From the sequence record MK373792.1: 64,000 bases of DNA; one strand, 5' to 3'. The DNA comes from Escherichia phage vB_EcoS_VAH1. Below the pieces are notes generated by a model. That model was not told the origin of the DNA and ran no database searches. It saw only the letters and a list, made by a program, of their open reading frames with translations. Each line of letters starts with the position of its first letter. Positions within the stretch are counted from its first letter, which is position 1. A program made the position numbers and the translations under genes. This document shows positions 43,452-52,017 of this stretch, piece by piece.

Positions 43452-43491
43452 TTTGTTACGTTCTCCGTTTAAGGGATTAGATTAATTCAGC

Positions 43492-43518
43492 ATTGCCCGC
43501 TTATAAATAGCGGGCAAT
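43492..43518 (-). other. perfect 9-bp stem-loop downstream of the A2-like gene
   Basis: ATTGCCCGC-TTATAAATA-GCGGGCAAT; no U-tract follows on the minus strand. Confidence 0.4.
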
Positions 43519-45661: not shown

Positions 45662-45757
45662 ATTAATAAAACTCCATTAAAGGGATTAAAAACGTTTGTT
45701 ATTGGCAAATATTGCCAAATATAACGCCTTGAATAATAGGCGTTATAATTTGCAACA

Positions 45758-45955
45758 TTAATTTAAAGGCATAAGGCTAGAACTAACACCACAAGCAACG
45801 GCAACAATAAAGCAAAGTAAGCCTAAACGCTTCGCTAGTTTAGATTTACGTTTAAAATAATATGAATCTAAATCATTTTGAAAATAAGCAAATAATAATG
45901 AGGCCGCCATAATAAATAAGCCTAGAATGAGGGATTCAGTAGGGTAAAAGATCAT
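45758..45955 (-). CDS. small membrane protein
   Basis: 65 aa with two predicted TM helices. Confidence 0.45.
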   Translation of the reverse strand: MIFYPTESLILGLFIMAASLLFAYFQNDLDSYYFKRKSKLAKRLGLLCFIVAVACGVSSSLMPLN

Positions 45956-46011
45956 TTTAAAACTCCAGTCAAAGGGAAATTATAGTGGGGAATATTCCCC
46001 ACTAATTAAAT

Positions 46012-46428
46012 TTATTCACCTGCGGCCTGTTTTACTTCATCGGCAACGCCCAATAGTTGCGCCACGGCGTCCAGCGTTTCCAATTTTGCGCTTTCCAGTG
46101 ATGCCAGATCGTCAGCGTCTTTGATAATGCCGGAATCGATGGCATGTTTTGCAATGACGCGTACATAATGCGCCTTGCGAATTGAACTGCCGCCGCCAAC
46201 TTTGCGCGGCTTATCGCTTTTCTGATACGCTTTTGCGCTGGTCAATTTTGAGCGAACAGACACGGGAGAAGCCGCGCCAACTGTTTTTGCAATCTCTTTC
46301 AGGCCGTCGCTGTTAGCGAACTCCAAGCCGTTTTCATTGATGAGCTGTTGATACATGGTAACAGCCTGTTGGGTGTTTTCTTCATTCCATGCGAATTTTG
46401 CGGATTTTTCGGTTTTAACGTTAGCCAT
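46012..46428 (-). CDS. hypothetical pre-early protein
   Basis: 138-aa ORF with RBS GGAG; preceded by an operator-like palindrome. Confidence 0.5.
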   Translation of the reverse strand: MANVKTEKSAKFAWNEENTQQAVTMYQQLINENGLEFANSDGLKEIAKTVGAASPVSVRSKLTSAKAYQKSDKPRKVGGGSSIRKAHYVRVIAKHAIDSGIIKDADDLASLESAKLETLDAVAQLLGVADEVKQAAGE

Positions 46429-46463
46429 GATTGTAACTCCTATCGATTTAATTTAAGGGATAA

Positions 46464-46512
46464 GATTAACATAATGTTAATCGTTATATACCCCGAACTA
46501 CTGGGGTATATA
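46464..46512. promoter_or_regulatory. operator-like 19-bp palindrome plus 10-bp-stem hairpin
   Basis: GATTAACAT-A-ATGTTAATC (46464-46482) and TATATACCCC-GAACTACT-GGGGTATATA (46485-46512). Confidence 0.45.
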
Positions 46513-46526
46513 AAAGTAACACTAAA

Positions 46527-46778
46527 TTACGCTACAGCTTCCCATTTTTCGTTGCGCTGGATAACCTTTACAACGTCGCCGGATTTAACCCGAACGCTAT
46601 AAATAGTTTTTCCGTTGTTACTCCGTTCCGTTTCAGCGTATACCGCGTCAATCACATCAAACGGCATAAGCGCCGCGCCTTTGATGCGTTCGGCCTTTCC
46701 GGTTAATTCGTCCGTTTTAGTAACGAAAGGGATGAAAACGGATTGACCAATTTTTGGCGCATTAGTAACGTTTTTCAT
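46527..46778 (-). CDS. hypothetical pre-early protein
   Basis: 83-aa ORF with RBS GGAG. Confidence 0.5.
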   Translation of the reverse strand: MKNVTNAPKIGQSVFIPFVTKTDELTGKAERIKGAALMPFDVIDAVYAETERSNNGKTIYSVRVKSGDVVKVIQRNEKWEAVA

Positions 46779-47010
46779 GGTATAAACTCCAGTTTATTCA
46801 GTGGATTGTTCCGCATTACCTGCTGTAAAAATAGTGGCAGGTAATAAGTAACAATCCGCTCGCCATTATAATCAATTTAAAGAACTCCTCTCAGGCCGCT
46901 ATATCCCAGTTAGGGGGCGGGGCACATTATGGTAAGTGCCGACCGTCAAATTGTATCAAGTTATCGCTCTTATCGAACTGGGTACATCTTAAAGCCTATC
47001 GGCTAGGGTG

Positions 47011-47214
47011 TCAAACAATTTTTTGCAGTTTTTTATGATTTTCTTTCAAGTCAATCATAATGTTTCGCCAGATCATTTCCAGACCTTGCTGGCGGCCTTT
47101 CTTGTACTGCGTGAATCTATATTTTACGGATTGCTGAGCTATTGTCAACAATTTTTTAGTAGTACCATCCAATTTTTTGGCGGGTTTACCAGTGATCAAT
47201 AAAGTTTGTTTCAT
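47011..47214 (-). CDS. hypothetical basic small protein
   Basis: 67-aa Lys-rich ORF. Confidence 0.4.
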   Translation of the reverse strand: MKQTLLITGKPAKKLDGTTKKLLTIAQQSVKYRFTQYKKGRQQGLEMIWRNIMIDLKENHKKLQKIV

Positions 47215-47715
47215 ATCTGCGATTCCTTATATTATATAAGTTTTCCGCCGATAGACTTTAAGATATACCCAATTTTTAAAGAGCGCGGCGGTAAACTTCC
47301 CCGCCGTTGTAGTCCGTTGCCGTCCTACGAGATAAATAATAGGTGATTCCCAAAAATGGCGCAACCTTATTTTTGTAAAGAAACGTAAAGAAAGCAAATA
47401 ATCGCAGGGTGTCCGGCGATTGCCTAAGTTTAAAGGAAACGGGCGCGCGAATACCATAAAACCGAGCAGATAGGCAAGTAATTTTTTCATTTATATTTGC
47501 TTTGCCCTACTTGACAAATCTTAAAAAGCTCGTGGTAGCGATAAACGAGGGTAGGCAATGCAATGGCATACCTGAAAATTTTACCGCTTTCTAGGGCGTT
47601 TTAGGCGGCTCATTTTCGATTTAACAAATATTTAACAAAAGCAAAATTGAAAAATAGTTTGAAAAGGTATTGACTTTTTAAAATCAAGACTAAACGAGTT
47701 ATTTTATAAAATTAA

Positions 47716-50539: not shown

Positions 50540-50766
50540 AAAGCGTTGTTGTTATTATCCTTGCAATGGTTGGCGGTTTTACTGCCACCTTATTTAAGAA
50601 TGATCCCCTTTTACTGGGGATTTTTATGCTTTTATCTGGTTATCTGATTGGGAGGCTAACAAATGATTCAACAAATTAAAAGGGCGTTCCAATATTGGGG
50701 CGTCCTGCCTTCAATCGGTTTTATTCTGATAATCATTAGTCAGCTAATGATTATAGGCGGAACTAT

Positions 50767-51422: not shown

Positions 51423-51661
51423 CAACAAGCGGGGCGCAACTATCAGGGAGTGCCCCCAATTCTCAAATGAGAATGATTCTCATTTGACCGCGCCCGCGAT
51501 GGTTAGCCTGCTAATGATTAGGGTGTTACGTGTCGCCTTGTGTGATAGTTAGCGAGCTAACTAATTTTCAAGCCTCCTCCAATTTTGCCCTTGTTTTAGT
51601 ATCCCCATCAAAATAAAACGCGTTAGAATGCGATTCAGGGCGTTTTAGGCCTATATTAGAA

Positions 51662-51999: not shown

Positions 52000-52017
52000 G
52001 CAGGGCAATTGCCCTGC
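52000..52017. other. perfect 18-bp palindrome GCAGGGCAATTGCCCTGC
   Basis: Perfect dyad, followed by a short T-run (GCTTTTG). Confidence 0.5.

Follow-up and report, generated by a model that had tools for sequence, protein, structure and literature searches.

A probable intercistronic RNA element with two covarying pairings ahead of gene A2 in T5-like phages

The sequence analysed here, referred to as the window, is a 64,000-nucleotide stretch of Escherichia phage vB_EcoS_VAH1 (MK373792.1), a T5-like phage (Tequintavirus). Between positions 45700 and 47300, the window shares approximately 92.6-92.8% identity with the left terminal repeat of T5 and BF23, which is first-step-transfer DNA, and all genes in this region lie on the minus strand. 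A P-D/E20-like promoter is followed along the transcript by a T5.007 homologue, which is the first gene past that promoter, and then by A2, a T5.005 homologue and A1 (Table 1). A1 and A2 are the only essential pre-early genes of T5, both being required for second-step DNA transfer, and A2 is described as a DNA-binding dimer whose target is not known. A Myb/GcrA-like three-helix HTH was predicted at the N-terminus of A2 by a fold search only; A2 queried in a PDB sequence search and a local Pfam scan returned no match. The gap between T5.007 and A2 spans 98 nt and holds a palindrome and a hairpin. The first-pass annotation of this DNA was right in its anatomy and in its placing of the site between a pair of pre-early genes, which share a transcript. 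The terminal repeats of T5 are rich in palindromes; the A2-leader element shares its genome region with the palindromes described there (Wang et al. 2005; Davison), palB among them, but differs from these in that the gap carries no annotation of any kind in the T5 records AY587007, AY543070 and AY692264 or in the BF23 record OR083247. Moreover, we found no description of the element in the papers searched on the T5 terminal repeat, transcript mapping and RNase III.

Table 1. Genes and sequence elements of the A2 and A1 leaders, in window coordinates.
Feature	Position	Strand	Description
P-D/E20-like promoter site	47014..46986	-	sigma-70-like promoter scan
T5.007 homologue (DUF7177, 83 aa)	46527..46778	-	Pfam PF23801, E 8.5e-44; T5 and BF23 annotations
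Segment A, RNA UAGUGUUAC	46516..46524	-	complementary to left palindrome arm plus spacer
Hairpin 1	46484..46513	-	11-bp perfect stem UUAUAUACCCC/GGGGUAUAUAA, arms 46484-46494 and 46503-46513, 8-nt loop
Hairpin 2 = 19-bp palindrome GATTAACATAATGTTAATC	46464..46482	-	perfect 9+1+9 dyad
Hairpin 2, RNA parts	46464..46482	-	A' GAUUAAC(AU), variable loop, A'' (AU)GUUAAUC
Conserved box AUCCCUUAA	46453..46461	-	between hairpin 2 and Shine-Dalgarno; CCCTTAA invariant in 42/42 unique leaders
A2 Shine-Dalgarno GGAG	46437..46440	-	read from the sequence; conserved in the alignment
A2 gene (138 aa)	46012..46428	-	protein 100% identical to BF23 A2; PF26822 Phage_T5_A2
A1-leader module	45702..45759	-	fold z = -3.56; compensated variants in relatives
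A1-module segment A AAUGUUGC	45752-45759	-	same three-segment design
A1-module hairpin 1 UUAUAACGCC/GGCGUUAUAU	45720-45729/45738-45747	-	from the fold
A1-module hairpin 2, palindrome TTGGCAATATTTGCCAA (RNA UUGGCAAUAUUUGCCAA)	45702-45718	-	from the fold

In the mRNA, the elements of the gap follow one another as segment A, hairpin 1, a single nucleotide, the two halves of hairpin 2 (A' and then A''), the AUCCCUUAA box and, ahead of the A2 start, the Shine-Dalgarno sequence. The palindrome reported by the first-pass annotation is present as a perfect 19-bp dyad and occupies, as stated, the stretch 36-54 nt ahead of the A2 ATG. The adjoining stem-loop is likewise perfect, but its stem comprises 11 bp instead of the 10 originally given and ends at 46513 instead of 46512. 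The top of the hairpin 1 stem is GC-rich (CCCC/GGGG), and the sequence past the stem reads CGAUUAACAU; the reported lack of a U-tract held past the hairpin on either strand. Such features exceed chance in the 64-kb window, which contains five perfect palindromes with arms of at least 9 (0.78 expected) and five perfect-hairpin loci with arms of at least 11 (0.18 expected from dinucleotide shuffles). The exact 19-mer, searched at up to three mismatches, occurs once in the window against an expectation of 0.02.

We gathered A2 leaders from IMG/VR, metagenomes, GenBank phages (including those of Klebsiella, Obesumbacterium and Pectobacterium as well as Eos and Vibrio phages) and contigs encoding distant A2 homologues, Yersinia phiR2-01 among them. 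The resulting set comprised 42 unique close leaders and a dozen distant ones, approximately 50 in all, and rescanning IMG/VR with an alignment of A2 recovered the same 40 loci. Throughout, the module stays 29-38 nt from the A2 AUG, even where the upstream gene lies 230-290 nt away; by its position in these leaders, the module travels with A2.

Hairpin 1 varied extensively in sequence while its pairing was retained. In the MAFFT alignment, 96.4% of its cells were paired and both sides had changed in 7 of the 11 pairs, one of which occurs as AU (14), CG (14), GC (5) and UA (5). None of 500 shuffles reached these pairing values, and no slid register came close. Furthermore, the non-Watson-Crick cells in properly aligned rows were exclusively sense-strand U.G, with no A.C. 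In distant lineages, the sequence and size of hairpin 1 are wholly different and its place is kept, with a stem of up to 23 bp or with large inserts. Judged by its covariation, hairpin 1 is a selected structure.

The palindrome arms are also maintained as an inverted repeat, through the compensated alleles GAUUAAC/GUUAAUC, GGCUA(A)/(U)UAGCC and GAAUAAC/GUUAUUC. The asymmetric arm variants, GUUAGUC in DU_PP_V and UGGCC in leader L040, produce sense-strand U.G wobbles, and the spacer, which forms the loop in RNA, varies in sequence and ranges from 2 to 6 nt in length across the leaders. Pairing was found in 96% of hairpin 2 cells, compared with a partner-permuted mean of 109.4/126 (approximately 87%), and the observed value was reached in 0 of 5000 permutations, a count that overstates independence because the leaders are phylogenetically related. 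The cognate duplexes averaged -8.1 kcal/mol versus -4.5 kcal/mol for non-cognate combinations (1/20000 permutations). The arm sequence of hairpin 2 is far better conserved than that of hairpin 1, a conservation that hints at sequence-specific recognition by some partner. The compensated changes, the sense-strand wobbles and the variable spacer point to a palindrome that behaves as an RNA hairpin and not as an operator.

In the minimum-free-energy fold of the window sequence, UAGUGUUA (46517-46524) pairs with UAACAUUA, which consists of the left palindrome arm and the spacer (z = -3.74). This A:A' pairing extends hairpin 1 into an interrupted 8+2+11-bp helix of approximately 21 bp; the corresponding helix measures 21-31 bp in other lineages, with the exception of the Klebsiella-type leaders, in which A:A' is weak (-3.2 kcal/mol) and the long helix is not the preferred fold. 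Compensatory changes were identified at four of the nine segment A positions, in different lineages, the double changes being U-A to A-U at two of them, G-C to A-U and A-U to U-A. Overall, 86% of the cells in the A:A' stem were paired, a value that 0 of 5000 partner permutations reached, and cognate A:A' duplexes were stronger than non-cognate ones (8/20000 permutations), these counts being subject to the same relatedness among leaders. Because the left arm is common to both, the long helix and hairpin 2 are mutually exclusive, and the ensemble energies of the two folds, computed under constraint, differ by approximately 3 kcal/mol or less in most lineages. In leaders of the GGCUAA type, segment A pairs with the loop and does not repeat the half-site, an arrangement that fits RNA pairing and not a model with three protein-binding sites. 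Predicted accessibility of the Shine-Dalgarno sequence and AUG was equal in both folds. Together, the comparisons among leaders show a predicted bistable RNA structure of the sense strand, conserved ahead of A2, in which both pairings covary. An Rfam covariance-model search of the element returned only noise (E >= 0.48, far under the gathering scores). We also considered sequestration of the Shine-Dalgarno sequence by a CUUAUC:GAUAGG pairing that appears in the window fold, and rejected it, as the partner is not conserved and accessibility is the same in both folds.

A second module of this kind lies further along the same transcript. From its predicted fold and the compensated variants in relatives, the A1 leader carries a module paralogous to that of the A2 leader (Table 1), and past its palindrome the leader continues with AAUCCCUUUAA, GGAG and AUG. 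In BF23, the A1-leader hairpin is annotated as a predicted rho-independent terminator. The leaders of T5.005, T5.003 and dmp each contain one hairpin, past which lies a comparable AU-rich initiation region containing CCCUU, and boxes related to AUCCCUUAA precede A1, T5.005 and dmp. In the dmp leader (43492-43518 and 43469-43488, minus strand), a 9-bp hairpin AUUGCCCGC/GCGGGCAAU is followed by UUAAUCUAAUCCCUUAAA, which is identical to the stretch of A'' plus box in some A2 leaders; the flanks of this hairpin, GAUUUAUU and AAUUAAUC, are also able to pair.

Transcript levels across the junction were available for phage Bas33 (HildyBeyeler), whose palindrome is identical and whose hairpin 1 is a further covarying example. 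The highest group mean was 12,199 for the T5.007 homologue (log2FC -0.12) and 5,207 for A2 (log2FC +0.98; PMC13250531 Dataset S1). From T5.007 to A2, mRNA falls 2.3-fold with daunorubicin and approximately 4.6-fold without it, in gene-level values taken at 20 min, in which short genes may be biased low. The first-pass annotation had named uniform transcript coverage as evidence against its proposal; in Bas33, gene-level abundance is non-uniform across the junction. Along the operon, the levels of bas33_0178-0185 are 1232, 12199, 5207, 1171, 4925, 1143, 4425 and 2218 (PMC13250531 Dataset S1). This series is non-monotonic, with A2, A1 and bas33_0184 above the short genes between them, and could reflect segmental stability, internal promoters or short-gene counting bias.

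The first-pass annotation had suggested that the palindrome is an operator for a dimeric HTH repressor. On that reading, such a protein, with A2 itself as the candidate, would bind the duplex palindrome and repress or block pre-early transcription. The site does resemble lambda Cro/cI-type operators, being a perfect 19-bp dyad that adjoins the gene for a DNA-binding dimer; its arms are invariant across Tequintavirus and Epseptimavirus, A2, encoded immediately downstream, is a described DNA-binding dimer with a predicted Myb/GcrA-like HTH, and symmetric arm changes would also suit the co-evolution of an operator with its protein. Several observations speak against this reading. A scan for sigma-70-like promoters found none in 46430-46530, the nearest being at 46894..46865 and 47014..46986, and a candidate internal A2 promoter was discarded, having no consensus match and a TTAACA-TTAAAT spacing that varies from 17 to 23. 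The half-site spacing is not fixed, the arms lying 4, 5 or 6 nt apart among Tequintavirus leaders with the same or nearly the same A2 HTH: the spacer between 7-bp arms is ATTAT in T5, ATTAAG in L172 and ATAAT in L174, whose A2 HTH domains are identical, and ATTA in L012, whose HTH is nearly identical. Nor do the arms track the HTH, as far as A2, the one protein compared, is concerned: L163 and L182 are one HTH residue apart, yet their arms are GGCTA and GAATAAC, and L035 and phiR2-01 (L189) share the second and third HTH helices, with arms GATTAAC and GGCTAA, respectively. A search for further half-sites, as the first-pass annotation had recommended, revealed no second copy in the window and none beyond chance in a complete 112.5-kb relative; matches at two mismatches were at chance level, and TGTTAAY was not enriched (32 versus 29.8 expected). 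Moreover, the asymmetric arm variants form U.G on the sense strand only, and segment A of the GGCUAA-type leaders is a loop-pairing sequence and not a copy of the half-site. The operator reading consequently did not hold up, and we regard it as very improbable. Still less credible, to the point of being negligible, is a chance or neutral AT-rich palindrome or a host Fur-box-like site. The region is AT-rich, the T5 terminal repeats are full of palindromes, and 12 of 19 positions match GATAATGATAATCATTATC, but the strong conservation and covariation, with approximately none expected by chance, and the differing arms in phages of the same hosts speak against it. Because the arms vary between lineages, we judged coincidental both the Fur-box likeness and a likeness to the 'epsilon' enhancer of T7 gene 10 (UUAACAUUA versus UUAACUUUA). 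In view of the covariation, the compensated arms, the variable spacer, the U.G wobbles, the absence of a promoter and the single copy, the A2-leader site very probably functions as an RNA structure and not as a DNA operator.

As to what such an RNA would do, one possibility is a switch of translation or expression, in which the choice between A:A' and A':A'' regulates translation of A2 and, in the sister module, of A1. It could be thrown by upstream ribosomes that melt segment A or by an RNA-binding protein on hairpin 2, or could provide a standby or enhancer platform together with the AUCCCUUAA box. Known leaders with alternative pairings, such as attenuator-like 1:2/2:3 leaders and the fold-back structures of IS10 and hok, likewise have three complementary segments whose middle one pairs either way, with both pairings kept by covariation. 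Here, the two covarying pairings are near-isoenergetic, the T5.007 stop codon of Tequintavirus lies 2-8 nt ahead of segment A, the distance from the module to the A2 AUG is 29-38 nt in every case, both essential genes are preceded by the module, and hairpin 2 and the box are conserved in sequence. In contrast to those leaders, however, the element has no terminator U-tract, no leader peptide and no predicted effect on the ribosome-binding site. A simple translational on/off switch is not supported, since the predicted pairing of the Shine-Dalgarno sequence and AUG is the same in both folds; coupling to ribosomes is not general, because the upstream ORF is 230-290 nt away in several lineages, and we found no candidate for a binding protein. 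We consider this switch unlikely. The wider proposal that the A2 and A1 modules form a phage-specific bistable RNA switch timing or limiting the proteins that trigger second-step DNA transfer is equally doubtful; such a switch might sense upstream translation or a phage or host RNA-binding factor, or act on RNA polymerase in the manner of put RNA. The two adjacent hairpins of the A2 leader, 1 nt apart, may resemble the put RNA of phage HK022. Transcriptional punctuation could take the form of hairpin 1 acting as a weak intrinsic terminator or attenuator, or of a put-like pair of hairpins that would alter RNA polymerase so that it reads through terminator-like hairpins further downstream. The GC-rich hairpin top is terminator-like, the junction coincides with a 2.3- to 4.6-fold fall in mRNA, the A1-leader sister hairpin is annotated in BF23 as a predicted rho-independent terminator, and the terminator-like palB follows A2. 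Against this, termination is unlikely because neither hairpin 1 nor hairpin 2 is followed by a U-tract; termination requires no covariation of A, A' and A'', and no Rfam family matched the element. Punctuation therefore seems to us quite improbable, more so than a switch.

The reading we prefer is a cis-acting RNA structure that serves in mRNA processing or stability. RNase III sites of the R1.1 type in T7 and T3 are intercistronic, irregular helices of approximately 20 bp with an upper and a lower stem and a small internal loop. The A2-leader element resembles these early mRNA sites: it lies between T5.007 and A2 in a polycistronic mRNA downstream of P-D/E20, an early message of the host polymerase, and its irregular helix of approximately 20 bp or more (two turns) has no U-tract. 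In both cases, a 3' hairpin would remain on the upstream message. The A2-leader element differs in that a third segment gives a competing second hairpin, in that its sequence is not similar to those sites and matched no Rfam family, and in that cleavage here is putative. In the proposed model, hairpin 1 and hairpin 2 (A':A'') would stand side by side in one fold, and in the other A:A' would stack under hairpin 1 to form the interrupted helix of approximately 21 bp, which would be a T7-type processing site for RNase III or a similar endonuclease. A cut near the junction of the two hairpins would leave hairpin 1 as the protective 3' end of the T5.007 message and would release A', which could then pair with A'' in a hairpin at the 5' end that stabilises the A2 message; processing would in this way determine the relative amounts of the pre-early products. 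Several points weigh against the model. Our literature search returned nothing on RNase III in connection with pre-early mRNA of T5, the mRNA step, seen in gene-level RNA-seq at 20 min, could also come from partial termination, leaders of the Klebsiella type pair A:A' weakly and do not favour the long helix, the ribosome-binding site is predicted to be equally accessible in either fold, and the greater sequence conservation of the hairpin 2 arms hints at a sequence-specific partner. By analogy with T7, this specific mechanism is a tentative proposal, somewhat short of an even chance, though a better candidate than the switch; a cis-acting RNA structure in the A2 leader and a role in processing or stability, taken together, we rate as about evenly balanced. 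The alternative offered by the first-pass annotation, an RNase III site or RNA element controlling a pre-early transcript, is compatible with all findings, cleavage being putative.

The element can be viewed as an undescribed variant of a familiar kind, the structured intercistronic leader. Its interest is moderate and derives from its place ahead of both genes essential for second-step transfer, A1 and A2, where an element supported by covariation coincides with a measured transcript step. It offers a concrete, mutable target for post-transcriptional control in the earliest phase of T5 infection. If the bistable switch were true, it would represent an unrecognised layer of control in the two-step injection programme of T5; if the element is merely another intercistronic stabiliser hairpin, it is ordinary and would still improve the annotation of Demerecviridae genomes. 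The case also cautions against taking AT-rich palindromes in phage intergenic regions for operators.

Further structures were observed in the same part of the genome and in relatives. Directly past the A2 stop lies palB (45983-46004), a 9-bp GC-rich palindrome after which the mRNA continues with UAAUUUCCCUUUGACUGGAG and the T5.005 start; in a terminator scan, it was the sole terminator-like match within 45700-47600. The 5' leader of the T5.007 homologue (46800-46860, minus strand) contains an inverted repeat with 24-nt arms that are 83% complementary, giving an interrupted helix of approximately 18 bp that ends 5 nt ahead of ...AAUAAACUGGAG. The right-hand portion of the terminal repeat contains further perfect hairpins and palindromes at 50729-50754, 51463-51487 and 52000-52017, which probably belong to the known repeat region of the injection stop signal. 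Finally, three T5-like loci of Vibrio phages (L164, L166 and L167) carry a hairpin GGGUG(U/C)UCAUAACAUCC approximately 30-50 nt upstream of A2, which has the GUGUU/AACAU pairing of the T5-like A:A' stem without a nested hairpin; two more hairpins and a strong promoter-like TTGAC(T/A) site lie ahead of it.
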